Source of the DNA: Lachnospiraceae bacterium | Lineage (GTDB): Bacteria > Bacillota > Clostridia > Lachnospirales > Lachnospiraceae | DNA: 39,370 nt | Assembly (NCBI GenBank): GCA_017961065.1 | Contig: JAGCXZ010000166.1 | Span: 1 to 39,370, forward strand | Direction of reading: 5' to 3' | Part shown: one piece after another, positions 1,688 through 39,370 of the stretch | How positions within the stretch are numbered: the first letter of the stretch is position 1 | Layout of the letters: each line of letters opens with the position of its first letter | Notes under the pieces: model-generated | The model's input: the letters and a program-made list of their open reading frames with translations, nothing else | Database searches by the model: none | What the model was told of the DNA's origin: nothing | Translations under genes and position numbers: made by a program

Positions 1688-4600
1688 TCATAGATGCTCT
1701 TTGATCCATGCAAGGAGCTTGGATCCTATCGTGTAACTTATCTCTTTATATCCGCCGTAGTTGCCGTCTTCCGTTGCGCGCAGGATGACTTTAACGGTAC
1801 CTGCGCCCCAGCCGGCCGGATAAACATATGTCGCATCATCGATCACATAATCCGTTCCGTATGTAAGGTCTGTCCTTCCGACTCTGACAAATACGATATC
1901 TTCTTCCGTCAGTTTCAGTTCGTGCCCGTTATCGTATTTCTTGCCGGTGATCCGGTATTTTGCGTTTGTAAGACTTGCTTTGACGATCCGGTATGTTGCA
2001 GAGATCTGTGTCTGCTCATACCTGCCCTTTCCGGTCACGCTCACGGAGATCACGGTACCGGCTCCGGGAATGTCATTTTGTCCCACATCATCACCGGCCG
2101 ATCGTTCTTCCGGCGTGGATCTGTAACGCTCAACCGTGGGATCCGTAAGATACGCATATGTATATTTTATATCGGTATAATCCGTTCCGGCCTTTAACAC
2201 CTTGCCGTTCGCATCCGTCAGTACCGGAACCGATTTCCAGGCGCCTTTTGCAGCCGCATAAACCTTATCGGGCGCTTTGATCGAGATCTTGGCATCAGAG
2301 AATACGCTCGTTTCGATCCGGTAGTTTCCGGTGATCCTGCCTTTGTAATTGCCGCGTCCGATGATGGTCAGCGTTGGAAGCTTTGCAGGCTGCGGATCCG
2401 TATCGGTCAGAACGGAAGTATTTGCCAGAGCGATCCTGTAGTCCGTTCCCGCCTGCAGGGCCTTTGGCGATCCTGCATCAAAAGCGTGATCCCACAGGGT
2501 GATGACCGGTGCCGCGCAGCCTTTTGCATACTGACAGACGATCTGTGAGATATCCGTAACCGGGATCTCGGCAGCCGGGTTTTCGACCGTATGATACGTC
2601 ATACGGATCCTGTCCGGATCTGCCTGAATGTCATATTGCCAGATCCTGTAAACGGCCTTCAGGGAACCGGAATATCCGTTGATCCCCGTCACGATGACGG
2701 TGGCGTTCCCGGCCTTTTCCGTATTCTTATAGGAAACCGTATAATCCCCGGTGATCCCGTCCGGACTGTATTGCAGCACCTGTCCGTTGAGTTCCACATA
2801 CGCATGATCCGGATCGCGCGTGCCGGCAAAGTCCGGTTTCACATCCGGGCCGTATGTTCTGGCGCCGAGATTCATGACCTTTGCCTTGGAGATCGCCGTT
2901 CCTGTGATCGTAAAGTTTTTGGTGCAGCTTCCGGTATAACCGCTCCCCTCAACTGCGGTTATAACAACCGTGGCTGTACCGATCTTTGTATTGTTTAAAT
3001 ACGATACCGTATATTTATCTGTCGGGATTGCAGCTTTTTTATACGTCAGGACAGGCATCGGCGTGAGCGGCCCGCCTGTATAAGTCTGGTTGGGTATTTT
3101 CCCGACCATCGCCGGTGAAAGAAGAACAAGGCTCGTGATCGTCTCATACGTCGTGATCGATCCCGTATAGCCGCCTTTACCGGTTATTGTTACCGGATAA
3201 ACACCGGGACTGACATATGCTCCCTTTCCGGTCTGCGGGTATTGCAGGGTATAATCCGTGCCGACCTTTAACTGCCTGCCGTCGCATGTAACAATGGGAC
3301 TGCCTTTGATCGCCTTTCCGGTATAGGCAGCCGTGACCGCCGATGCTTTCACATCATGGTCGGTGAGCGCTTTGGCAACGATATGGAACGTGACTTTTTC
3401 CGTACCGGAATAGTTCCCTTTGCCTCTGACGCTCACTGTCGGAACACGCGTTGCACCGGCCGCATCCACTTTTACATTGTTGGCATAGGTGACAGTATAG
3501 TCCTTTCCTTCAACCAGTTCGGTGGTCTCATTTCCCTCTGCATAATCAATGCTGTCATAAACCCTGACCGGTGGACGGATCGCGGAGCCGGTGTATGTCT
3601 GATCCCCGATCGGAACGACATAGAACCCTCTTCCCGTTTCCTCAAAATGCGGATACATGTGCAGTTCGCGCTGTGTGATTACGGTATCGGGGCCGATTCG
3701 GGAACCGGTTCCGTTGGTACCGGAGTACCATCCGAGGAAGGCTTTCCCGTTGATCTCGGGATCCTTCGGCCACTCCAGTCCCTTTTCTTCAAATTGTTCT
3801 CCTGCCGTTCTTCCGCAGGACAGACCATTGACCGTTCTGATATCCGTCAGCGTTTCACCTCCGTGGATCACGATCGATGCACCCGTGACCGTAACGGAAA
3901 TGCTGTCCGAATAGCCGGCAAGCGTTGCCTTTATTGTCGCGCTTCCTTCCGAAAGTGCGGAAACGGTTCCGTTATCAACACCCGCGATCAGCGGTTTGTT
4001 GCTTTCCCATGCGATCTTTGTATCGCTCGTGGTATCTTTTGGCCAGTATTCCAATACCAGATTCCTGCTCTGTCCCATGAGCAGTTCCGTCCCGGCAGGA
4101 TCGGTCAGCTCGACTTTATAAACCGGTGCGATGACAGTGATCTCACAGGTTGCCGTAACCGCGGCGTTTGATTTTGCCTTGGCTGTGATCACACACGTCC
4201 CGGCTCCGACAGCTTTTACCAGACCGCTTGCATCCACCGTTGCGACCTTATTGTTGCCGGATACCCAGGTTACGCTTTTCTCATCCGTCGTGTTCACCGG
4301 CTCGTAGGTGACACTCAACTGCAACTGATCGTGATTGGCTTTTTTCTGTTCCGCCGTAAGCCCTGTTCCGTTTTCCACGATCGTATCGGTCCGTCGCATG
4401 ACATCCGATGTATGGTCCAGATAGATGTTGCGGATCGGGCTTTTGACCGTGATGTTGCAGATTACTTCGTTACCGTCGTAAGCCGCCGTGATCACGGTGC
4501 TCCCGGGATTGATCGCGGTAACTGTCCCGTTTGAGACAGTGGCTACTCCCGGATCACTTGACCTCCAGCTTGCCTCGGAACCCTCCAGCGCGGTCCCGTT

Positions 4601-29877: not shown

Positions 29878-30285
29878 TTATTCTCTTGCCAAAAACTCTG
29901 CCGGAGCAAACGCAAGCACTTCGCTTTTTTTGAAATCTTTCACATTTCTCGTGATGATATGATCTGCATGGATTCGCCTGGCAGTAACGGCCTGTACTGC
30001 ATCCTCAAAATCATCCCACTTCAGTTCTGCAGCTGAATTGATATCGGATGCGGTCAGATCTGCAAGCGAAAAGATCAAGGATAGTTTTTTTATCACTTCC
30101 TCTGTCTTCTCAGGGCTCAGTTCTTTTCGCATGACATAAACCAAATTTGCAAATGTTAGAGCAGAAACATATCCTTCCGCCCGCTCTGTTTCACACATTT
30201 TCCAAATCTTTGCCGAATCTTCGTAATGCGGTTCTCTTTTCTGGAGGACATCGAGAAGAATGTTTCCGTCAATCAGTAATTTCAT
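29878..30285 (-). CDS. PIN-domain toxin (VapC-like) of a type II toxin-antitoxin pair
   Basis: MKLLIDGNILLDVL (Asp6), FEDAVQAV, IITRNVKDF. Overlaps the upstream antitoxin gene by 17 nt. Confidence 0.88.
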   Translation of the reverse strand: MKLLIDGNILLDVLQKREPHYEDSAKIWKMCETERAEGYVSALTFANLVYVMRKELSPEKTEEVIKKLSLIFSLADLTASDINSAAELKWDDFEDAVQAVTARRIHADHIITRNVKDFKKSEVLAFAPAEFLARE

Positions 30286-30517
30286 ATCTCTCCTTTAGTT
30301 CTTTCTCCTTCGCCTGGTCTATGTCCGTATCTCCTTTAAGGATTCCGGTAAGAGAATCCGTCAGATATGACACGGCTGCTGCTCGAGGTATAAACCGCCC
30401 TACTTCTTTGCCGTTTTTCGTAACGATAACTTCGCTGCCGCTCTGCACCAAAGCAAGATACCGGCCGAAGTTATTCTGCATCTCTGTTGCTGTAGCAGTT
30501 GCTGTATTTCCAATCAT
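30269..30517 (-). CDS. Phd/YefM-family antitoxin
   Basis: ATEMQNNFGRYLALVQSGSEVIVTKNGKEVGRFIP is a typical Phd/YefM N-terminal fold. GGAGGTG RBS. Confidence 0.85.
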   Translation of the reverse strand: MIGNTATATATEMQNNFGRYLALVQSGSEVIVTKNGKEVGRFIPRAAAVSYLTDSLTGILKGDTDIDQAKEKELKERYEITD

Positions 30518-30537
30518 GGTATCACCTCCGACTTTTA

Positions 30538-30577
30538 TTAGCTAATTTTATTATATCATTTTTTAGCTAATATGCAA
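30538..30577 (-). promoter_or_regulatory. Promoter (minus-sense TTGCAT-16-TATAAT) bracketed by two TTAGCTAA palindromes, the likely Phd/PIN autoregulatory operators
   Basis: TTAGCTAA at 30538..30545 and 30563..30570. -10 (plus-strand attata) at 30550..30555 and -35 (plus-strand atgcaa) at 30572..30577. Confidence 0.55.
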
Positions 30578-30612
30578 GTGTGACCGGATCTTGCTTAAAC
30601 CATGCGTTAAAC

Positions 30613-30643
30613 AAAAAAGGATCCGGAATTCCGGTTCCTTTTT
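30613..30643. terminator. Bidirectional terminator hairpin at the left end of repeat copy A
   Basis: AAAAAA-AAGGATCCGG-AATT-CCGGTTCCTT-TTT. Confidence 0.7.
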
Positions 30644-30822
30644 ACAGGGCTAGGAGGGCGCTAAACGTCCAGTGGACGTTTGTTAAGCGCCGACCGGAGC
30701 AGCGCGAAGAACGAACCTCCAAATGACGGAGTCAGAGAACCTTGCCTGTTGCCCTGAACATATTGTATTTATCATGCTTTTCAGCATTTCACGTTTTTTG
30801 ATTGACCTATGAATTGACCTAT
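30613..30822 (-). repeat. Copy A of a ~210-bp structured repeat, a candidate sRNA or 3'-UTR element ending in a rho-independent terminator
   Basis: About 95% identical by eye to 31754..31965. Nested stems CAGGGC/GCCCTG, GGAG/CTCC, GGCGCT/AGCGCC and AAACGTCC/GGACGTTT. Tandem ATTGACCTAT direct repeat at the right end. Confidence 0.85.
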
Positions 30823-30953
30823 CTTTTTTTCGAAATTTCTGTATAAATCGCTTCACTCTACTTATCGCAATCCAAACGCATCCTCAACGATTCTATCCAG
30901 ATATTCCTTCTTGGAAAAATCACTTCCGTCTGCAAAAAAAGCATTATATGCAA

Positions 30954-31127
30954 CTAATTCGCTGTCTCCTTCATCTTGTATTTCTTATCCAGATATTTCT
31001 TTGCATCTTCAAAAGTTATTTCACCATTCTTTTCCTTCTCTATATACTTTTTGAAATCCTCTGTTGGCTCTAGCCCATCGACCTTGATCATTCCGATGGC
31101 ATAGTCCCATGCCTGTGAATTTGTCAT
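30954..31127 (-). CDS. VbhA-like antitoxin-domain protein (57 aa), with no Fic partner in view
   Basis: AGGAGG plus a 7-nt spacer before ATG at 31127. AWDYAIGMIKVDGLEPTEDFKKYIEKEKNGEITFEDAKKYL matches the VbhA pattern (..EGLEPS.E......G.I....). Own promoter TTGAAG-18-TATAAT (plus-strand 31176..31205). Confidence 0.7.
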   Translation of the reverse strand: MTNSQAWDYAIGMIKVDGLEPTEDFKKYIEKEKNGEITFEDAKKYLDKKYKMKETAN

Positions 31128-31243
31128 ATGTCGACCTCCTATCATCGTTATCTGATACTCCATATTTGCGTTTATATTATACTCTCTTTTATTGCTGTGC
31201 TTCAATATCGTTTAATCATACTTTAAAAAGAAGAACAGGCTTT

Positions 31244-31678
31244 CTAAAGGTTCACAGTTTCTGAATCCAAATACACGTGCCTAAGATTATTATTCATACA
31301 GATAGCCTTGGAATCATCACAAAGATAATAACTCCATATAAGCACAAGCCGCATCATAAAATAAAAATAGCCCCAAAAATGCTTATATCCACAGTAAGCA
31401 CATCTATATGCAGCATACATATATACCAGTCCGGCGTCACTTAAACACTCATCAAATATTAAATTATTGTCCCTGATACCATGCGAAACCAGATAACTCT
31501 TGGCTTTTCTTATGGATAATTCATAGGAATACAAACTCATATATTCTGCAATCTTTTCTTCCGGCATCTGTTTCCTGACTTTTTCTATCCCTCTTGGGAT
31601 ATAGTATTCTTTCATCCTCCTTGCCATCTCCTTCTTTTTGAAATAGTCTTCATCATCTTTACTTTTTACTGTTCTCAC
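31244..31678 (-). CDS. Hypothetical protein, aromatic/Cys-rich (start uncertain: GTG 31678, ATG 31627 or ATG 31615)
   Basis: ORF downstream of an extended -10 TGGTACAAT (plus-strand 31725..31733). No family recognised. The segment DECLSDAGLVYMYAAYRCAYCGYKHFWGYFYFMMRLVLIW is faintly reminiscent of sigma-70 region 2. Confidence 0.45.
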   Translation of the reverse strand: MRTVKSKDDEDYFKKKEMARRMKEYYIPRGIEKVRKQMPEEKIAEYMSLYSYELSIRKAKSYLVSHGIRDNNLIFDECLSDAGLVYMYAAYRCAYCGYKHFWGYFYFMMRLVLIWSYYLCDDSKAICMNNNLRHVYLDSETVNL

Positions 31679-31753
31679 AATGCTAAAGTTCCTTTTTCCA
31701 ACGAATACTTTCCTGCAAATTGGAATTGTACCACATAAGATCATAAATGATAT

Positions 31754-31786
31754 AAAAAAAAGGAACCGACTCACCGGTTCCTTTTT
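31754..31786. terminator. Bidirectional terminator hairpin at the left end of repeat copy B
   Basis: A run, then AAGGAACCG-ACTCAC-CGGTTCCTT followed by TTT. Confidence 0.7.
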
Positions 31787-31965
31787 ACAGGGCTAGGAGG
31801 GCGCTGAACGTCCGGCGGACGTTCGTTAAGCGCCGACCGAAGCAGCGCGGAGACCGAACCTCCAAATGACAGAGTCAGAGAACCTTGCCTGTTGCCCTGA
31901 ACATATTGTATTTATCATGCTTTTCAGCATTTCATGTTTTTGGATTGACCTATGAATTGACCTAT
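31754..31965 (-). repeat. Copy B of the ~210-bp structured repeat, starting 11 nt after the HEPN stop codon
   Basis: Aligns with 30613..30822 with about ten substitutions. The inner stem becomes GAACGTCC/GGACGTTC, a compensatory double change relative to copy A. Confidence 0.85.
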
Positions 31966-31975
31966 TTTCAAAGTG

Positions 31976-32410
31976 TTATCTATATCCTTCCTTAACCAGA
32001 TCGGCATACCATTGATCAGCCTCTTCATAGCATCTCTTCAATGTATCTATTCTTACCACAAGATGAAGATCATAACGTCCGGTTGCTTCCCAGCGTGTTA
32101 TTATGTCTTTATTCTTATCAATATAAGATGGCATATTAATTGCAATGCCTAGAGAGTTTGCATAAACAAGCAAATCTTTAATGGAATGCTTATACATACG
32201 TGCGTTGTCGATCTTCTTTCCGGAAGCATATATCTGAATCTTGACCATCTTTTCGCACGCTTGCTGCAGATGATAAGCACCCTGACCCTTGATTGACTTT
32301 GACATTCTGGCAGAGGCCTTTTCGGCCTGCTCGATGGAGTACTTTGACAAGAGCAGATCAGCCTTTACTTGCGTCATTGAAAGAATATCATTTACATTAG
32401 TGACGGGCAT
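31976..32410 (-). CDS. HEPN-domain protein (partner of the minimal nucleotidyltransferase)
   Basis: YHLQQACEKMVKIQIY...YKHSIKDLL is a typical HEPN helix pattern. Overlaps the upstream MNT gene by 14 nt. Confidence 0.78.
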   Translation of the reverse strand: MPVTNVNDILSMTQVKADLLLSKYSIEQAEKASARMSKSIKGQGAYHLQQACEKMVKIQIYASGKKIDNARMYKHSIKDLLVYANSLGIAINMPSYIDKNKDIITRWEATGRYDLHLVVRIDTLKRCYEEADQWYADLVKEGYR

Positions 32411-32765
32411 AAATCAGTTCTCCATTTTCTATATCATCCATAATCAATCCTCTATATTGTTTACCGGAAACAAAGTATAAAAGATCATATGATTGTCCGG
32501 AATCGTCAAAAGAATATATCTGGCTGGTAAACCTGTCATATTTCTTTGATCTTAATGCCCTGTACTCTGTCTGATTGCCAAAGATCGCAAGGTCAATATC
32601 CGACTCCTCTTTACAGCTGTCTCTCACACTAGAGCCAAAAAGAACTATCCTGTCAATAAGATCACATTGACTGGCAGCATCAACAATATTTCTTATGTAT
32701 TTTTTCTTGATATCGGCAACTCTGATATTTCTGTCACCGATTTTCATTTTAACAACTTTACACAT
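32397..32765 (-). CDS. Minimal nucleotidyltransferase (MNT) domain protein
   Basis: Polymerase-beta-type NTase motif IVLFGSSVRDSCKEESDIDLAIFG. Confidence 0.85.
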   Translation of the reverse strand: MCKVVKMKIGDRNIRVADIKKKYIRNIVDAASQCDLIDRIVLFGSSVRDSCKEESDIDLAIFGNQTEYRALRSKKYDRFTSQIYSFDDSGQSYDLLYFVSGKQYRGLIMDDIENGELIYARH

Positions 32766-32918: not shown

Positions 32919-34232
32919 TTATACCGCTTCCTGCTCCGCAAACAGTCTCTCCATCTGCTCCTCGCTCAATTCCTCATGATATTCCTTTCTCTCCATAAAT
33001 CGCTTCTCATGAAGCTTATCCATATATTTCTTATGTTCCATCTGCCTTTTGTGCAAAGCGTCCACAGCTGCCTTTTCATCCGCTTTTCTCTTCCTTGCCC
33101 TTGCTTCCTGCCGCCGTCTTTCTTCCTGTCTCCTAGCGGCATTGCTTTGGCTTCGGTCGTCTGACGTTCTAATTTCCATAGTTGTATCATCACCGCTGAC
33201 CTTTATACCCTGACCATTTTGTTTCATGGACAGGTCTACATGCTGTATTGCACCTGCTCCTCCGCTTTCACGAAGAAAAACTCCCGTGGATCTGATCACT
33301 CCATCCCTGAAACCATCCGCTCCGCCAAGCGAAAACTCCGTCTGCTGTTCTCCAAGATATATGGCACCGATATCCGCTTCCTTCAGATCCATGAGTACAT
33401 CCTTTCCATTCTCATCCTTGCACCACACCTTAAGTTTTGAGAAGATCTCGTCGTTCTCATCGATCCATCCGTTACCGTCACTGTCATATTCGCGAAGCTC
33501 GCCAAATCCGTCACCGCTCTTTGTTCCAAACAGTTCGTTGCCGTCATCTATTTTTCCGTTCCCGTCCTTATCCAAAGCAAGAAATCCCGACCCCTTGCCA
33601 AGCATGGATATTTCATCCTCGATCCCGTCAGCATCAAGGTCAAACTTAAAAGTCTGATCCCGCACGTCCGCTGTGTTTGATCCTATGTTGACAATAAGCG
33701 GATCAAACAGCGCATCGGCCATAGTCGGAACACTCACGTTCATATATTCCATGTAGCTCCTGCTCATCAGGATATTCACGTTAAAATCGATCGTCCTTCC
33801 ATCCTCGGTACATGCTCTTCCGCAAGCATGAAATCCCATCTCTTCGACCTCTGAGTAAGTGACCATGCTCGAAGAATATCCGCCAATACCTGCTCCACCC
33901 ATCATTCCAAAAGATGCAAATCTCTTAAACATCGCGGCCAAGGTGTTGTTTTGAAAAGCCGATGCACTTGCTCCTGTTCCATACAAGCTTCCGGAAGTTA
34001 TTTTTCCAAGCCCCTTGAAATATCCGATATCATCCATATTGTACGCACCCATCCCATTGTTATTCTTACCGGATTGATACGTGTCCCTTGTAAGGGCAGT
34101 ATCTTTATTGGTTCCGTACCTATTGATCATTCCCATAAAACTGCTTTGATATCCGGCCAATCTGTTAGTTATTCCGGTCTGCGTATAGTTTCTTCCCGAT
34201 AACATGTTTACTGTGCTGTCTGCTATTCTCAT
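32919..34232 (-). CDS. 437-aa protein with EF-hand-like DxDxDG calcium-binding repeats and a highly charged coiled-coil tail; no signal peptide
   Basis: GGAGG RBS. FDLDADGIEDEIS, LDKDGNGKIDDGNELFG and YDSDGNGWIDENDEIF repeats. C-terminus RRQEERRRQEARARKRKADEKA. Gly/Ser/Asn-rich N-terminus. Confidence 0.75.
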   Translation of the reverse strand: MRIADSTVNMLSGRNYTQTGITNRLAGYQSSFMGMINRYGTNKDTALTRDTYQSGKNNNGMGAYNMDDIGYFKGLGKITSGSLYGTGASASAFQNNTLAAMFKRFASFGMMGGAGIGGYSSSMVTYSEVEEMGFHACGRACTEDGRTIDFNVNILMSRSYMEYMNVSVPTMADALFDPLIVNIGSNTADVRDQTFKFDLDADGIEDEISMLGKGSGFLALDKDGNGKIDDGNELFGTKSGDGFGELREYDSDGNGWIDENDEIFSKLKVWCKDENGKDVLMDLKEADIGAIYLGEQQTEFSLGGADGFRDGVIRSTGVFLRESGGAGAIQHVDLSMKQNGQGIKVSGDDTTMEIRTSDDRSQSNAARRQEERRRQEARARKRKADEKAAVDALHKRQMEHKKYMDKLHEKRFMERKEYHEELSEEQMERLFAEQEAV

Positions 34233-34264
34233 GTTTCTACCTCCAGTTATTTGTTGTTTTCAAT

Positions 34265-34301
34265 AAAAAACTGCGTCCAAAGTTCAATCCTTTGAACGCA
34301 G
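34265..34301 (-). terminator. Strong intrinsic terminator between the 729-aa and 437-aa genes
   Basis: Minus-sense CTGCGTTCAAAG-GATTGAA-CTTTGGACGCAG (12 bp, one G-U pair) followed by TTTTTT. Only ~32 nt (34233..34264) separate the T run from the 437-aa start codon. Confidence 0.8.
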
Positions 34302-34363
34302 CAACCTTCCTTAGCTTTTATTATGATTTTTAACAGTATTATGTCTCAGATCTCTGTGAGGTT

Positions 34364-36553
34364 CTAGATTATGCTCATCTCCATGAGTTTTTCTATAAAA
34401 CGCTCATAGAAGGCTCTCTCTTTCTCCCTCGCCGCAAGTACTTTCGAACCCCTTGTTGTATCAGGCTCGAGAGGATGGTCAAGAGCATAAATAGCGTCCT
34501 GCGCCGCCTGGATGGCCGAGTTTACCGTACTCCCCAGAACATCATCAGGATCATATCCGTTATACTGGCGGATAAATCGCTGTATCATAAACTGTGGGAT
34601 ATGATCGAGTGTTCCGGAAGCCGATAATCCCTGTCCGTCCATGCCAATTTCATCTGCAGCATCCAACCAGGCATTTTTTACGTTCTCCGAAGCATTCTTT
34701 CCAATACCCAGAAATGCCTGTTCTCTCATTGCACGGACCTTATCCCTGGAATCTGTGGATGTTTTATCTCCTGTACTGTTTATGCCCAGAGCTCTCTGGT
34801 TTGCTTCTATTTGGGCATTCCAGTTATCCCACATTTCCTGCTCCGTAAATACCCTGCCGATAAAATGAGTGTTATTGATATATTCTGCAAAAGGCTCGGT
34901 CAAGAGATCTCCCAGATTCTTGCCCTCCTGTAACCCCTTCTCAACATTTATCTTTCCGTTATCGGTGGAATCGAAATATGCACGGAATCCGTCAATATCA
35001 AAATCATCCTTCATGAAATCCTTCCAGAACTTCTCCTGTGGAGCGAACGTTAGATTCTGATCCTTGGAAAAACTATTTAGAAACTTCTGAACCTTTTCAT
35101 AACTGTCCGGGGAATCATAAGTTAGACTCCATAAATCCCTCTGCGATATCTTTCCCCCTTCATCTTTTATTTCCTTACAGGAAATCCCCTTATCAGTATA
35201 GGCTGTGATATATCTGGTATTCACCGGAACAATCTCACCGGTATCAGGATTCGTGTACTGATTGTGTTTTGAAACAATTGTTTCGGATATCGGATCGGTT
35301 GTGTTGTCAGAATCGACATATCCGTTTTTCAAAGCGCTGATCTTTTCCCTGGTCTCAACATCATTGAGATCCGCAAACAAGAGCGAGAATGCTTCTTCAG
35401 AGAATCCGCTTCCCCTCATTGCCCTGTCGAAAAAAGAGTTTATGGCGTCAAATATCTTATTCGCAAGACTTGCAAGAGAAGGCGCCGAATCACTGTACTC
35501 TTCAGCATACTGGCCTAACAAGCTGACACGATCTCCTCTGTCAAATATCCCGTCGAAATAGCTTGTATCCGTAAAATAGCTACTTGCTATCAGATCAGCA
35601 GTTTCATCCGTCTGCCTGATATACATGCACATTGCCACAAACTCAGGGTAATCCATATCCTTCGGATCCAGCTCATACGGATCAAATACTCTTTCGAACG
35701 CCTCGCCGTTTTCATCAATGCCTGTTATCGTATATGTTTTATCCTTGCCGTCAGAATTGATGATTATATTGAATGACTGCTCCGTTTCCCTGTAAGAATA
35801 GATCACTTCTCCATTGGAATTCTGCTGTACATAAGACTCCTTGGTCTTGATATTGGCTGTAATGAACCTGGTGTATGCAGCCGGATCTCCATATCCTTTG
35901 CTGGCAATCGGAATACATGTGGCATCCATGTCACTTGACACCTCACTTTTCCTAGATACTTCTGTGATCATGTTCGTGCCATTATCAAGCCTTGTTTCTG
36001 CCCAACGTTCAAGTCCGGCAACAATGTTCTCACAGTTAAGTCCTTGATCATATGCCTGCGGAATGCCTAAAAATGTCTCTTTTGCATTTTGCAGTATCGC
36101 GGTCCAGTCTCTGTTCTTTGTCCATGCCATATCAGGATCGGAAAGATTACTGCAAAATCCATTATATTCCGCCTGTGCCCCATACGCTGTCATTTTTCCG
36201 AACGATTTAATGCCGGTATTATCGATAAGCCCCTTATCATCCATATAACTCATCAGTGCGAACATCTCCACTTTTGTAGCATTATGCGGATCAACATCAT
36301 TTACTCTAACCTCATAATCTCCGACTTTGATGATAGGATCTTCTTCTGTTGATGAGTCCGCATATTGGGCAATATACCCTATGTTACCAATCGTCATAAC
36401 TCCGATATTTTTACCTTGGTCAGATGAAGCGGTCCGTGAAGTAGCACTCCCCATAAATTCTTGCCCGATAGAGTCCTCTCCACGATTTGATTTCGAGCCA
36501 AAGCTTCCATACTGGTACGTTTGATTAAAACTTGTTTGTACTGCAAATGACAT
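34364..36553 (-). CDS. 729-aa protein of unknown function; no signal peptide, TM helix or recognisable catalytic motif
   Basis: AGGAGG plus an 8-nt spacer before ATG at 36553 (MSFAVQTSFNQ...). The upstream in-frame extension of the 772-aa ORF has no RBS and crosses the leader hairpin. Confidence 0.75.
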   Translation of the reverse strand: MSFAVQTSFNQTYQYGSFGSKSNRGEDSIGQEFMGSATSRTASSDQGKNIGVMTIGNIGYIAQYADSSTEEDPIIKVGDYEVRVNDVDPHNATKVEMFALMSYMDDKGLIDNTGIKSFGKMTAYGAQAEYNGFCSNLSDPDMAWTKNRDWTAILQNAKETFLGIPQAYDQGLNCENIVAGLERWAETRLDNGTNMITEVSRKSEVSSDMDATCIPIASKGYGDPAAYTRFITANIKTKESYVQQNSNGEVIYSYRETEQSFNIIINSDGKDKTYTITGIDENGEAFERVFDPYELDPKDMDYPEFVAMCMYIRQTDETADLIASSYFTDTSYFDGIFDRGDRVSLLGQYAEEYSDSAPSLASLANKIFDAINSFFDRAMRGSGFSEEAFSLLFADLNDVETREKISALKNGYVDSDNTTDPISETIVSKHNQYTNPDTGEIVPVNTRYITAYTDKGISCKEIKDEGGKISQRDLWSLTYDSPDSYEKVQKFLNSFSKDQNLTFAPQEKFWKDFMKDDFDIDGFRAYFDSTDNGKINVEKGLQEGKNLGDLLTEPFAEYINNTHFIGRVFTEQEMWDNWNAQIEANQRALGINSTGDKTSTDSRDKVRAMREQAFLGIGKNASENVKNAWLDAADEIGMDGQGLSASGTLDHIPQFMIQRFIRQYNGYDPDDVLGSTVNSAIQAAQDAIYALDHPLEPDTTRGSKVLAAREKERAFYERFIEKLMEMSII

Positions 36554-36573: not shown

Positions 36574-36631
36574 TAATAAAACAGCGCCTGATTTCAGTTT
36601 CACTCCATTGAAATCCGACGCTGTCCATAGC
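36574..36631 (-). promoter_or_regulatory. Conserved leader hairpin plus U-tract (attenuator-like), copy 1
   Basis: Minus-sense GCTATGGA-CAGCGTCGGATTTCA-ATGGAGTGAAAC-TGAAATCAGGCGCTG-TTTTATT. 15-bp stem with one mismatch and one G-U. About 75% identical to 38738..38794. Confidence 0.55.
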
Positions 36632-36680
36632 ATTTATTTTTCGGTTGTATGATTTGGTTATCGGTTCATTCCTAAGATTC

Positions 36681-36733
36681 ATTATACGTTCAGCATAAAC
36701 AGACCATAAAATATCATAAAACGACTATAAGAT
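36681..36733 (-). promoter_or_regulatory. LytTR-type paired direct repeats plus TATAAT: promoter of the 729-aa gene
   Basis: Minus-sense ATCTTATAGTCG-TTTTATGAT-ATTTTATGGTCT, then 14 nt, then TATAAT (plus-strand attata at 36681..36686). Repeat starts are 21 bp apart. The distal repeat overlaps the kinase stop codon. Confidence 0.6.
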
Positions 36734-38005
36734 GGTCACGGCAGTAAACTCTTTTTCATCACAGGAGATTGCAAAACTGCCTTCATACTTATCGATCACG
36801 CCTTGAACATTTGACAACCCGATCCCTTGTCCGTCCCTTGAACCGTTCTGCACCTGGTTATCTGTAATATCCACCTTTTGAACGACCGGATTCCTTACAG
36901 TAAAGATTATCCCGGAATCCTTCTCAACAAGTTTCACCTGTATAGATGCAGATCTCCCGCACGTCTTCACTTTTTTACATTCATGTATTGCGTTTTCAAG
37001 AAGATTTCCCATAACTATGACAATATCATCATCCGAAAGACGAATATTGCACATATCACTGATGGTAAAGACCATTCCTATATCTTCACTTTTGGCAATC
37101 CGATAAAACTGATTTAGAACAGCATTTACAACAGGATGTCCGGTGTTGACTTCCGACATTTCCACAGCGATGCTTTTCGTCAATTGTTCCGTGAACTCTA
37201 TAGCCGCCTCCACGTCTCCGTTTTTTAACAATTCCTCAACAGTAGCCAGTTGTTTTTTATAATCATGAAGTTTCCGGCCCTGCCGTTCATAAAGAGACTG
37301 CATATCGTGAAAAGCCCGAAGCTGATTCTGTTTGCTCTCTATCTGTACCTCAGATAAACGCAATTTTTCATCTTTAATCAACGAATCTTGCAATAGGAAC
37401 ATGGAAAAAATGTTTACCGCAAGCAACACAGCCGAAACTATTCCTTGAAAAATCCCAACGCCAGCCGGTGACACAAAAAACATATAAAAAAACATTCCCA
37501 CAATCATTGTAACAAGCGGTACCCATATGTACGATCTCAGCATCACATGTTCTTTTTTCAAGCATTCCTTAACTCGATGCAGCTTTTTTCGAAGAACAAA
37601 CTCTATACAAAATGCAATTAGGCAGGACAAACACGCCATTAGATTTAAAAAAGTCGGATTATTGCTTCGGCTAAGCTGAAGCGGCACACATACCAGAATC
37701 TGTGTAAGGATTTGTAAAAGTACTGCCGCACCGGAAAAGAATACGCTCATGATCCAATCAGATCTGTAACAGATCCTGACAAAAAGCATATGTATTGCAA
37801 TATATGTTATCAGTTTTATCGAATAATATTCATTTGGTATCTTTTCAAACAGCGCAGAATTTCCGCCTACAGAAAGCGCAAGCAGAATAAACGAAATCAG
37901 TTTTTGAATCTTCCCCCATTTAAAAAAAATAAAGGAATCATAATAATAGATGCACAGTGCTGTTTCAAATACACAAGTGCTTATAAATACCAACCATGCA
38001 GTCAT
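36725..38005 (-). CDS. AgrC/ComD-like (HPK10) membrane histidine kinase with a GHKL ATPase domain
   Basis: About six N-terminal TM helices, a coiled linker, then GNLLENAIHE ... DGQGIGLSNV (HATPase_c_5-like). 4-nt overlap with the LytTR regulator gene. Confidence 0.85.
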   Translation of the reverse strand: MTAWLVFISTCVFETALCIYYYDSFIFFKWGKIQKLISFILLALSVGGNSALFEKIPNEYYSIKLITYIAIHMLFVRICYRSDWIMSVFFSGAAVLLQILTQILVCVPLQLSRSNNPTFLNLMACLSCLIAFCIEFVLRKKLHRVKECLKKEHVMLRSYIWVPLVTMIVGMFFYMFFVSPAGVGIFQGIVSAVLLAVNIFSMFLLQDSLIKDEKLRLSEVQIESKQNQLRAFHDMQSLYERQGRKLHDYKKQLATVEELLKNGDVEAAIEFTEQLTKSIAVEMSEVNTGHPVVNAVLNQFYRIAKSEDIGMVFTISDMCNIRLSDDDIVIVMGNLLENAIHECKKVKTCGRSASIQVKLVEKDSGIIFTVRNPVVQKVDITDNQVQNGSRDGQGIGLSNVQGVIDKYEGSFAISCDEKEFTAVTIL

Positions 38006-38712
38006 AGTTTTTTCCCCTCATACAGTGTATACTCCTGTTTAACCTGCTTATATCTGGCTTTTGGTACCGATATCTGTCTATCATTATCAAGCGTCAGGAT
38101 ATAACTGTTGATATTTCTGATATGCTCCATATTCACAAGAAAGCTTTTATGTGTCCTCAAAAAGCCCTGCGCCTTGAGCCGTTCCTCAAGTTCTTCCAGT
38201 TTTTCATAGATCTGGTATGTCCGATCCTTCAGTTGAATCAAACACTTATGCCCTTCTGTTTCAATCAAGATGATCTCTGATGTCTTCAACCGAATATTTC
38301 CTTCAACGCAGTCAAAGCAAATCGTCTTGGATCTTCTTTGCAGTTCATTGCAGATATCATCCATACATTCTGAAAATGTACGATAAAGGTCATCCTTGAT
38401 CAGAAAGCGACTCGCTCGCACCTTGTATCCGTCCAATGCAAAGCTCATAAACGATGTCACAAGAATGATCGGAACATCTTCAAGTCTCTCCCGGATTCTT
38501 TTGGCTACTGTCAGACCATCCATCGCGTCCATATTGATATCCAAAAAAATGATATCCACAGTTTTCCCTTTGCGGATGGCATCAAGCATTTCGACACCTG
38601 ATCGATATCCTGATACCGCAAATTCCATATGATTTTTCCTAGCATATTCGTCAATAAGCGTTTTCAGCCTTGCAATGTCCTCTAAATCATCGTCACAAAT
38701 AAAAACCTTCAT
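38002..38712 (-). CDS. LytTR-family response regulator (AgrA/ComE-like)
   Basis: Receiver MKVFICDDD...IIFLDINMDAMDG. C-terminal LytTR domain (IILIETEGHKCLIQL...FLRTHKSFLVNMEHI). Confidence 0.9.
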   Translation of the reverse strand: MKVFICDDDLEDIARLKTLIDEYARKNHMEFAVSGYRSGVEMLDAIRKGKTVDIIFLDINMDAMDGLTVAKRIRERLEDVPIILVTSFMSFALDGYKVRASRFLIKDDLYRTFSECMDDICNELQRRSKTICFDCVEGNIRLKTSEIILIETEGHKCLIQLKDRTYQIYEKLEELEERLKAQGFLRTHKSFLVNMEHIRNINSYILTLDNDRQISVPKARYKQVKQEYTLYEGKKL

Positions 38713-38737: not shown

Positions 38738-38794
38738 AAAAATAAACAGCGCCGGTCTCAATGCTCAATCCATTGATCTGGCGCCATCCATAGC
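38738..38794 (-). promoter_or_regulatory. Conserved leader hairpin plus U-tract (attenuator-like), copy 2
   Basis: Minus-sense GCTATGGATGGCGCCAGATCAATGGATTGAGCATTGAGACCGGCGCTGTTTATTTTT. Stems GGCGC/GCGCC and TCAATG/CATTGA. It sits between the repeats and the regulator RBS. Confidence 0.5.
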
Positions 38795-38843: not shown

Positions 38844-38898
38844 AATAAACCCCTATTGCGTGAATCGACTATAATATGACATAAAACGACCATAATAT
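38844..38898 (-). promoter_or_regulatory. LytTR-type paired direct repeats upstream of the LytTR/kinase operon (autoregulation)
   Basis: Minus-sense ATATTATGGTCG-TTTTATGTC-ATATTATAGTCG, starts 21 bp apart (plus-strand 38866..38877 and 38887..38898). A weak -10 candidate TTTATT lies 16 nt downstream. Confidence 0.55.
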
Positions 38899-38979: not shown

Positions 38980-39366
38980 CTACGAAATCACGGCGTGCTG
39001 CCGTCTGTATGTGTCATTATCTTTCTGAACGAGTTCCATTTCTACCTGACGGAGTTCAACCGCTATTTCTTTCTTTTTTTGCTCATTTGCCATGTTCATT
39101 TCCTGCTCCAAACGAGCTTTCTTTTCTTTCAGTTCCCTTATCTCACGATCAACCCGGTCCGTGTTCATTGTAGTCGATTCGCTCTTCTTAGAATCCTCAG
39201 AAACCTTTTTCCCTGATTCAGAAAGTGACGCAACATATGATTTTGCTGAATTCTGCATTTCCTCAGCAAAGCCCTCAGGGATCTTCTCCGGTTCATAATA
39301 CCTGATGTCGCCTCTTCCCATCTCCAGTTTGATATCCTGAAGCCTATTTACGGCCTTGGCAACCAT
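38980..39366 (-). CDS. Charged coiled-coil protein (FlxA-like?); the true start may lie beyond the right window edge
   Basis: ORF rich in E/K/Q heptad-like sequence (REIRELKEKKARLEQEMNMANEQKKKEIAVELRQVEMEL). The first Met is only 4 nt from the window end. Confidence 0.45.
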   Translation of the reverse strand: MVAKAVNRLQDIKLEMGRGDIRYYEPEKIPEGFAEEMQNSAKSYVASLSESGKKVSEDSKKSESTTMNTDRVDREIRELKEKKARLEQEMNMANEQKKKEIAVELRQVEMELVQKDNDTYRRQHAVIS

Positions 39367-39370
39367 CTCG

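Follow-up and report, generated by a model that had tools for sequence, protein, structure and literature searches.

The Neisseria protein FrpC has a self-processing module (SPM) that is folded by Ca2+, whereupon the bond Asp414-Pro415 at the module's N-terminal edge is broken; an anhydride then arises on the liberated Asp and can become attached to a lysine, a reaction termed 'clip and link' (PMC7078468). The module is unfolded without Ca2+, a state that suits export through a narrow channel, and it requires Ca2+ above ∼100 µM, compared with <100 nM in the bacterial cytosol (PMC7078468). The authors of the FrpC structure called the fold unlike any other structure in the PDB (PMC7078468). Here, we report that P0002, a small protein of a Gram-positive bacterium, very probably has a module of the same type. 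P0002 and its neighbour P0001 are encoded on contig JAGCXZ010000166.1 (C20) of a Lachnospiraceae bacterium, and the window that we analysed, 39,370 nt in length, is this entire contig. The metagenome-assembled genome (MAG) to which it belongs comprises 2.55 Mb in 352 contigs and is ∼80% complete. To our knowledge, two RTX proteins from Gram-negative pathogens are the only ones in which the clip-and-link reaction has been demonstrated; the NeissLock protein-ligation technology builds on the SPM.

Two other described systems resemble this locus. The AgrA/ComE/PlnC-type regulons have a kinase and a LytTR regulator, with imperfect direct repeats that are paired at a distance of about two helical turns and lie immediately upstream of the promoter core, and their autoregulated regulator also drives a second target promoter. 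The late flagellar export substrates (flagellin, FliD, FlgK/L and FlgM) and E. coli FlxA have no Sec signal and are preceded by promoters of the TAAA-N15-CCGATA type. Non-flagellar cargo of flagellar export includes the Campylobacter FlaC/Cia proteins. The two genes under study are:

34364..36553, minus strand: P0001, 729 aa, DUF8329 (PF27009)-type modular protein
32919..34232, minus strand: P0002, 437 aa, SPM-family protein

P0002 contains a FrpC-type self-processing module

Residues 178-337 of P0002 resembled the FrpC-type SPM in a phmmer search (E 1e-6 to PDB 6sjw/6sjx), and an 84-homologue profile of the family matched 6sjw with an E-value of 1.9e-10. Close homologues bear the precomputed Pfam assignment PF26745 'SPM'. 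We obtained an AlphaFold2 model from the 84-sequence alignment, in which the predicted local distance difference test (pLDDT) score exceeded 90 over residues 179-337. When this model was compared with the PDB by Foldseek, the sole significant matches were 6sjx and 6sjw (E 8.3e-10 and 1e-8, template modelling score 0.69-0.71). The regions of P0002 are as follows.

34158..34232, minus strand: residues 1-25, conserved motif M[KRI]IxxSxVxMxSxRxY, predicted long beta strand (pLDDT 98 and 90)
33705..33872, minus strand: residues 121-176, conserved pre-cleavage beta hairpin (E128, E130, T142xDGR146, M156SRS)
33699..33704, minus strand: codons for Asp177-Pro178, predicted scissile bond
33222..33701, minus strand: residues 178-337, SPM (phmmer, profile, Foldseek), with Ca loops 198-209, 221-233, 250-261 and 273-285
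32922..33197, minus strand: residues 346-437, charged tail, predicted single long helix 364-436

An exhaustive search of 1.84 billion representatives gave 11,988 relatives (2,125 at E<1e-30), and the family forms more than 2000 clusters at 50% identity. Conservation was counted over the best 150 relatives and P0002 itself (n=151). The counterpart of the scissile bond is Asp177-Pro178 (context ALFD177-P178LIVN) at the N-terminal edge of the SPM; Asp177 is kept in 150/151 and Pro178 in 151/151 of these representatives. Also invariant or nearly so are D198, D202, G203, D221, E233-L-F-G236, D250, D252, N254, D258, D261, W270 (conserved in 145/151) and D333.

The DxDxDG loops of P0002 begin at residues 198 (DLDADG), 221 (DKDGNG) and 250 (DSDGNG). 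Two of them lie in EF-hand-like loops with invariant key positions, D221-K-D-G-N-G-K-I-D-D-G-N-E233 and D250-S-D-G-N-G-W-I-D-E-N-D261, which are the counterparts of FrpC D462-E474 and D499-D511. The FrpC loop D521-E532 is shortened to D273-E-N-G-K-D278, and the Ca site formed in FrpC by D419/D421/D423 and D456 is degenerate (N182/G184/N186, with S215 for D456). The P0002 family has an additional canonical DxDxDG at 198-203, which replaces a non-binding FrpC segment. FrpC W519 corresponds to W270, W451 to M210 and D478 to T237 (T/A/V across the family), while D333 is probably the counterpart of the essential D579, the hidden Markov model alignment leaving this position uncovered.

P0002 shares with FrpC the fold, the Asp-Pro at the N-terminal edge of the module, the EF-hand-like loops, the ELFG motif, the tryptophan W270 and probably the terminal Asp, and its chemistry is predicted to be alike, with folding induced by Ca2+, then a twisted amide, an anhydride of Asp and finally clip and link. 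Besides the exchanged residues, there are further differences. Proteins of the P0002 family have ∼330-510 aa and belong to Gram-positive hosts, whereas FrpC is a >1000-aa RTX exoprotein; P0002 has no GGxGxD repeats or type I secretion system (T1SS); it has the conserved N-terminal strand, the pre-cleavage hairpin and the extra loop at 198-203; and its control is predicted to involve a sigma-28-type promoter together with a LytTR regulator. From homology, fold and conservation together, we are highly confident that residues 178-337 are a FrpC-type SPM, and by analogy with FrpC its Ca-dependent cleavage is probable. The original prediction had noted the lack of a catalytic signature for the 729-aa protein; for the 437-aa protein such a statement would be incorrect, given the SPM with its invariant Asp-Pro. 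The hint of the original prediction at calcium-binding regions of RTX-adjacent proteins pointed in the right direction. An actual RTX/T1SS reading was rejected: a search for the pattern GG.G.D had no match in P0001 or P0002, P0002 has 437 aa and the host is a Gram-positive Lachnospiraceae.

Family architecture and a second copy in the genome

The order of elements is constant in the family: N-terminal motif, variable low-complexity linker, a conserved block in the ∼55 residues before the Asp-Pro, the Asp-Pro, and the SPM, which usually ends in ...QHVDLA. Consistent with this order, the P0002 model has long beta strands at residues 3-25, 121-142 and 147-164 (pLDDT 90-98) and is disordered at 26-120. 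Residues 1-120 are 54% G/S/N/T/Q/Y, and the final 92 residues are 50% K/R/E/D; the charged helix is specific to the lineage of P0002. No conserved lysine was found in the 177-residue N-fragment among the 151 representatives, and therefore the acceptor, if any, is probably a separate protein.

A second SPM-family gene is present in the same genome (contig C65:19357-20394, plus strand). Its product is 50% identical to P0002 over residues 125-335 and has no charged tail. A likely TTG start gives MIITNSSIGMDSARTY; the gene directly follows an aconitase-like gene, and TTAAC-N16-TCCGATAT is present upstream. In a maximum-likelihood tree, this copy falls in an 18-row 'core' clade separate from the subclade of P0002. 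The core clade has a fixed context: aconitase, sometimes an SseB-family gene, then M23-type peptidase, amidohydrolase-like, Ddl and MurF genes (the last four named from their sequences).

The SseB-family gene (PF07179, E 1e-17, ∼165 aa) lies directly before the core-clade SPM gene in ∼9 genomes (including L035, L038, L048, L050, L063, L071, L076 and L083). SPM-like segments (E 1e-20 to 1e-27) also occur inside open frames of 1168-2070 aa in Lachnospiraceae (G105:C237, G128:C47, G144:C43, G166:C131, G169:C2 and G193:C7). These giant frames are a different context for the module, and G169 is the sole SPM-positive genome without FlhA.

Putative operator repeats and synteny connect both genes with a LytTR regulator

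On the minus strand between 32.9 and 38.7 kb, four genes stand in tandem, namely a receiver-LytTR regulator, a GHKL membrane kinase, P0001 and P0002. The first two and the putative operators are:

38002..38712, minus strand: response regulator, 236 aa, receiver and LytTR DNA-binding domain (Pfam LytTR E 1.5e-22, Response_reg E 1.6e-15)
36725..38005, minus strand: AgrC-like membrane histidine kinase, 426 aa, GHKL HATPase_c_5 (Pfam HATPase_c_5 E 1.3e-17)
38861..38894, minus strand: 13-bp direct repeat pair (TATGGTCGTTTTA / TATAGTCGATTCA), putative LytTR operator upstream of the regulator operon
36696..36729, minus strand: second 13-bp direct repeat pair (TATAGTCGTTTTA / TATGGTCTGTTTA), upstream of the P0001 gene

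The regulator and kinase genes share a 4-nt overlap. Exact matches to the pattern TATRGTCKNTTYA number four in the window and form the two minus-strand pairs, with a distance of 21 bp within each pair; none of 100 shuffles (0/100) attained the observed total of matches. The paired repeats are retained at corresponding places in the related loci L004 and L006.

The neighbourhood is also kept, in varying order. L001 and L002 have the order SPM, LytTR-only protein, DUF8329; L004 and L005 have LytTR, 201-aa gene, DUF8329, SPM; and L006 and L007 have regulator, kinase, DUF8329, 198-aa gene, SPM. LytTR synteny was also observed in L012-L031, and a LytTR regulator lies ≤10 kb away in 26/80 reference-genome loci. 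The window's own genome has only 7 LytTR genes in 2.5 Mb. In the subclade of P0002 (maximum-likelihood tree, 18 rows), a LytTR, kinase, FliD_C-like or DUF8329 gene is ≤3 genes away in 15/18.

From the repeats and the synteny, it is quite likely that P0001 and P0002 belong to a LytTR regulon. The original prediction had taken them as the apparent output of the LytTR module. This is supported for the present lineage, since the same repeats precede the regulator operon and P0001 and homologues stand beside LytTR/kinase genes in multiple unrelated assemblies. The refuting case named by the original prediction, homologues that never occur with LytTR/kinase pairs, does not hold. The arrangement is like that of the AgrA/ComE/PlnC-type regulons, including a putative autoregulated regulator with a second target promoter. 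It differs from them in three respects. No AgrB/AgrD-like or peptide gene that would back the 'quorum-type' regulator of the original prediction is visible in the window, nor are ComAB-type processing genes; the target core looks sigma-28-type and not sigma-A-type; and the outputs are SPM and DUF8329 proteins rather than a bacteriocin, toxin or RNAIII.

Promoters and leader hairpins

Behind the operator of P0001, we found a promoter core and a leader hairpin, the latter also present at two other places.

36658..36686, minus strand: core of the P0001 promoter, TATAAT-N15-ACCGATAA, taken to be of sigma-D/sigma-28 type (with TAAT as -35 and CCGATAA as -10)
38742..38791, minus strand: leader hairpin copy 1, preceding the gene for the regulator (folding energy -24.2 kcal/mol, z -2.8)
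36579..36626, minus strand: leader hairpin copy 2, before P0001, with GGA in the 5' flank and apical loop, then a T-run (-21.4 kcal/mol, z -3.8)
34270..34302, minus strand: leader copy 3, 13-bp-stem hairpin and T-run between P0001 and P0002 (z -3.8)

The sigma-D consensus is TAAA-N13-16-GCCGATAW (PMC3865298). The P0001 site has the form TAAT-N15-ACCGATAA, and we infer a flagellar sigma-D/sigma-28 type for the core that follows the operator. Between the end of the operator and TATAAT downstream of it lie 9 nt, a placement that would fit an activator next to the -35 element better than one over the spacer. CCGATA occurs ≤200 nt upstream of 32/77 SPM-family genes, compared with 59/1001 other ORFs (open reading frames) of the same loci (∼6%), and many of the family sites match the sigma-D consensus in full, with TAAA-N15-GCCGATAT (for example, CTAAAGTAAAAAGAATATCTGCCGATAT). 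In the genome of the window, the motif precedes the FlgM-like gene, the FliK-like gene beside flhA (both named from N-terminal sequences), a DUF6033 gene, a c15-family gene, the C65 copy of the SPM gene and P0001; the main flagellin gene is preceded by CCGATAT.

The DUF6033 gene (C342:4813-5763) closely follows the genes for EF-G and EF-Tu (by N-terminal sequences) with a full TAAA-N15-CCGATA upstream, and the c15-family gene (C82:∼4000-4570) is likewise behind a full TAAA-N15-CCGATA. In other genomes, both families are found inside the LytTR/SPM module.

An alignment showed that the three leader copies have a common element, GCTAWGGA...TCAAWGGAKTGA...CGCWGTTTT, so that regulator gene, P0001 and P0002 each stand behind one copy displaying GGA motifs. 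The hairpin between P0001 and P0002 had been taken as a plain terminator, a reading that was revised on the basis of this alignment. The classical CsrA site is a GGA within the loop of a hairpin, and the csrA contig of this genome also carries the FlgM-like gene and a FlgK/L-type (flagellin_N) gene. With its GGA motifs, the leader recalls B. subtilis hag, which is under CsrA control.

The P0002 family is confined to flagellated genera

We examined the phyletic pattern in 201 Lachnospiraceae genomes, one per genus. All 46 genera with a full-length SPM-family protein have FlhA (46/46), against 107/201 overall (Fisher p 7e-16, a value that ignores kinship), and so do the genera with a P0001 homologue (13/13). 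WXG100, a marker of the type VII secretion system (T7SS), showed no association (10/46 SPM-family genera versus 41/201 overall). The window's own genome encodes FlhA, flagellins and CsrA. It also has seven WXG100 genes in two tandem arrays (contigs C16 and C284), which suggests a type VII secretion system. T7SS as the general exporter was rejected, as 36/46 family genera have no WXG100, and neither the profile scan nor the AlphaFold2 model revealed a WXG100/LXG-type N-terminal helical domain in P0001 or P0002.

Neighbouring genes also point to flagella. In 10 reference loci, the gene immediately preceding the SPM gene is FliD_C-like. In the module of L006, FliD_C is matched by the first gene (above the Pfam cut-off, E 4.7e-6) and FlxA by a further one (E 5.8e-7). 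A survey of gene neighbourhoods, as proposed earlier, yielded FliD_C-like and FlxA-like neighbours and no holin or immunity-like small membrane protein in the module. The earlier statement that no export system is visible holds within the window; the genome does encode the flagellar type III export apparatus elsewhere (FlhA).

In L006, seven consecutive same-strand genes (L006:1344-7649; 247, 319, 322, 150, 347, 307 and 207 aa) lie upstream of the regulator. The first is the FliD_C gene and the fourth the FlxA gene; the other five have no significant family match. Several of their products have S/T/N/G/Y-rich N-termini and K/E-rich helical tails, as in P0001 and P0002. A search for the module genes of L006 (FliD_C-like, 319-, 322-, 347-, 307- and 207-aa) found none in the rest of the MAG; as the contig ends at 39370 and the MAG is ∼80% complete, these genes may be missing from the assembly only.

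On these sequence grounds, we consider it very likely that the P0002 family is a member of the flagellar regulon. Export of P0001 and P0002 through the flagellar apparatus has in our estimate an even chance, with promoter type, gene neighbours and phyletic distribution pointing to it. Both proteins are like late flagellar substrates in having no Sec signal, in the corresponding promoter type of the family at large (putative for P0001), in the restriction of the family to genomes with FlhA and in their FliD_C and FlxA neighbours. They differ in having no flagellin- or hook-type terminal helices, a strongly conserved N-terminus and an extra LytTR operator.

P0001 is a multi-module DUF8329 protein

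P0001 has 443 relatives, nearly all with a precomputed PF27009 (DUF8329) match. The assignment of P0001 to this family is indirect, via the precomputed matches of homologues that are 85-92% identical to it. Over 421 aa, P0001 shares 71% identity with the L001 protein that carries PF27009, and its residues 50-167 match the C-terminal side (residues 477-600) of the L001 DUF8329 protein; domain order varies between loci. P0001 consists of modules at about residues 30-190, 227-420, 421-590 and 601-729. Genome searches showed that modules at about 30-190, 420-590 and 600-729 occur separately in other proteins, and P0001 is therefore a shuffled multi-module protein. In L006 and L007, a small 198-aa protein, perhaps comparable to the module at P0001 residues 50-167, is encoded directly downstream of the DUF8329 gene.

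The ATG of P0001 is preceded by AGGAGG at 36567-36562 with a spacing of 8 nt. A longer reading of 772 aa from an ATG at 36682 would start within the conserved TATAAT and cross the leader hairpin. This start is unlikely, because homologues begin at the equivalent of Met1 (consensus MxIxGxxT) and the extension would span promoter and leader hairpin; it is an ORF-calling artefact that could mislead annotation. The ORFs, ribosome-binding site, three DxDxDG loops and charged tail described in the original prediction were confirmed. Neither protein has a signal peptide, as the original prediction had stated, or a transmembrane helix, which follows from the maxima of the 19-residue Kyte-Doolittle mean (0.73 for P0001 and 1.15 for P0002). 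Scans of both proteins with Pfam and NCBIfam profiles gave nothing significant (the Pfam copy predates PF26745, and PF27009 was also not among its matches), and a PHROGs scan had no match. Both are nevertheless real genes, as their homologues number hundreds to thousands.

Proposed mechanism and alternatives

We propose that both genes are the visible part of a flagellum-linked accessory module of rumen and gut Lachnospiraceae, a proposal to which we give about equal odds for and against. The kinase would sense a cue, and the regulator would bind the paired repeats. The sigma-28-type core would add a need for the active late-flagellar sigma factor, making an AND gate with the regulator signal, and the leader copies may add attenuation or CsrA-type control on each of the three units. 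Having no Sec signals, P0001 and P0002 would leave the cell unfolded via flagellar type III export as late substrates; at cytosolic Ca2+ the SPM would be disordered and thus kept unfolded, as for RTX proteins (PMC7078468). Outside the cell, by analogy with FrpC, Ca2+ would fold the SPM and D177-P178 would break. The 177-residue fragment would then bear an aspartic anhydride, which would either be hydrolysed (maturation) or be coupled through an isopeptide bond to a lysine in a neighbouring protein, and the part with SPM and helix would be released. That the anhydride, after flagellar export and Ca2+-triggered cleavage, covalently staples the N-terminal beta module onto a partner (such as the co-regulated DUF8329 protein, a FliD-like protein, the filament or the cell wall) is a tentative extension of the FrpC analogy, and we regard it as doubtful.

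Several observations weigh against this proposal. Flagellar export signals typically show disorder and little conservation, whereas the N-terminus of P0002 has strong conservation and a predicted structure. The exchanges W451 to M210 and D478 to T237 and the degenerate first incomplete EF-hand (N182/G184/N186) mean that cleavage kinetics, or even activity, could differ from FrpC. P0002 has no LytTR boxes or clear promoter of its own, and its expression must come from a weak promoter or from transcripts that read through the hairpin. A sigma-A -10 element is another possible reading of the conserved TATAAT, and close relatives show GTCGATAA, not CCGATAA. The phyletic statistic ignores shared ancestry, and the family occurs in only 46/107 flagellated genera, so that it is not a core flagellar part. 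For P0001, the AlphaFold2 model is weak (pLDDT 61); a sequence search of the PDB found nothing, and Foldseek gave no match below E 0.01.

P0001 and P0002 might also belong to the flagellar and LytTR regulons yet stay inside the cell as regulators, scaffolds or Ca2+-responsive motility switches, the Asp-Pro being cleaved on intracellular Ca2+ transients or its bond being kept for another reason. Neither protein has a secretion signal, the N-terminal strand and pre-cleavage hairpin are structured in the model, and the core paralogue sits among cell-wall genes, all of which would agree with an internal role. E. coli FlxA is sigma-28-dependent and is not known to have an exported role. We nevertheless consider such a role unlikely, as the Ca2+ requirement of the SPM far exceeds the cytosolic level (PMC7078468), the invariant Asp-Pro and the four Ca loops argue for a genuine Ca-triggered reaction, and the neighbours resemble the exported cap protein FliD.

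An exit from the cell that does not use the flagellum (through T7SS, an ABC exporter, a holin or lysis), after which the proteins would serve under LytTR control as an effector, large bacteriocin or matrix/adhesion protein, appears rather improbable. LytTR two-component systems classically drive bacteriocins, this genome has its seven WXG100 genes, and the module lies within a low-GC stretch with toxin-antitoxin cassettes and in L006 adjoins ALP_N, AbiEi and further genes of mobile or defence type. Against this route stand the carrier genera, 36/46 of which lack WXG100 while 46/46 have FlhA. Moreover, the module contains no double-glycine leader, C39 ABC transporter, immunity-like small membrane protein or holin, and no RTX repeats for T1SS and no PHROGs match were found. 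Nothing emerged in favour of the large bacteriocin or the intracellular defence effector offered by the original prediction, and a phage or defence-effector reading was rejected, as PHROGs gave no match and the family has a conserved core-genome paralogue.

A degenerate, non-cleaving SPM that serves in Ca-dependent folding or binding would fit the replacement of FrpC W451 and D478 and the degenerate first EF-hand-like site, but is very doubtful, since Asp and Pro are kept across divergent representatives (150/151 and 151/151), the invariant D333 likely corresponds to the essential D579, and in FrpC D478A merely lowers activity and D478N has a moderate effect (PMC7078468).

The SPM domain and both Pfam families are already in databases, and the domain assignment is not new. 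Our literature search found no paper linking the SPM to flagella or Gram-positive bacteria, and no paper mentioning DUF6033. The module is found here in a small Gram-positive protein, in a family confined to flagellated genera and behind flagellar-type promoters. Judging from the loci compared, the SPM protein of this lineage has acquired the charged tail, a partner of the DUF8329 family and a LytTR switch; this two-component switch would also act on other undescribed families (DUF8329, DUF6033, FliD_C-like and FlxA-like). If the proposed export and cleavage are true, several DUFs would gain a function, and the flagellar export apparatus of dominant gut and rumen commensals would have non-flagellar cargo under a promoter that merges a quorum-type signal with flagellar assembly. 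The stapling reaction would amount to sortase-independent, quorum-gated covalent decoration or cross-linking of a Gram-positive surface or flagellar structure, and the family (>2000 clusters) would be a large natural reservoir of compact SPM variants for protein engineering.

Flanking genes

The gene cluster is cut off by the contig end at 39370, where the following ORF is truncated.

38980..39370, minus strand: ORF upstream of the regulator, truncated by the contig end, with a K/E-rich coiled-coil tail (weak family matches only)

Its tail resembles the FlxA-like module proteins of related loci. In L006, the module is flanked by an ALP_N actin-like segregation gene (L006:1-524) and on the other side by AbiEi, AEP-TOTE/SNF2-type helicase and PBECR4 genes (L006:14070-21752), which indicates that in some genomes the module travels with mobile or defence DNA. 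Directly downstream of P0002 in the window (29878-32765) are toxin-antitoxin-type cassettes (PIN/Phd, VbhA-like and MNT/HEPN; named from their sequences). Starting at 30 kb, GC content drops from ∼0.51 to ∼0.40, as would be expected of an acquired island.

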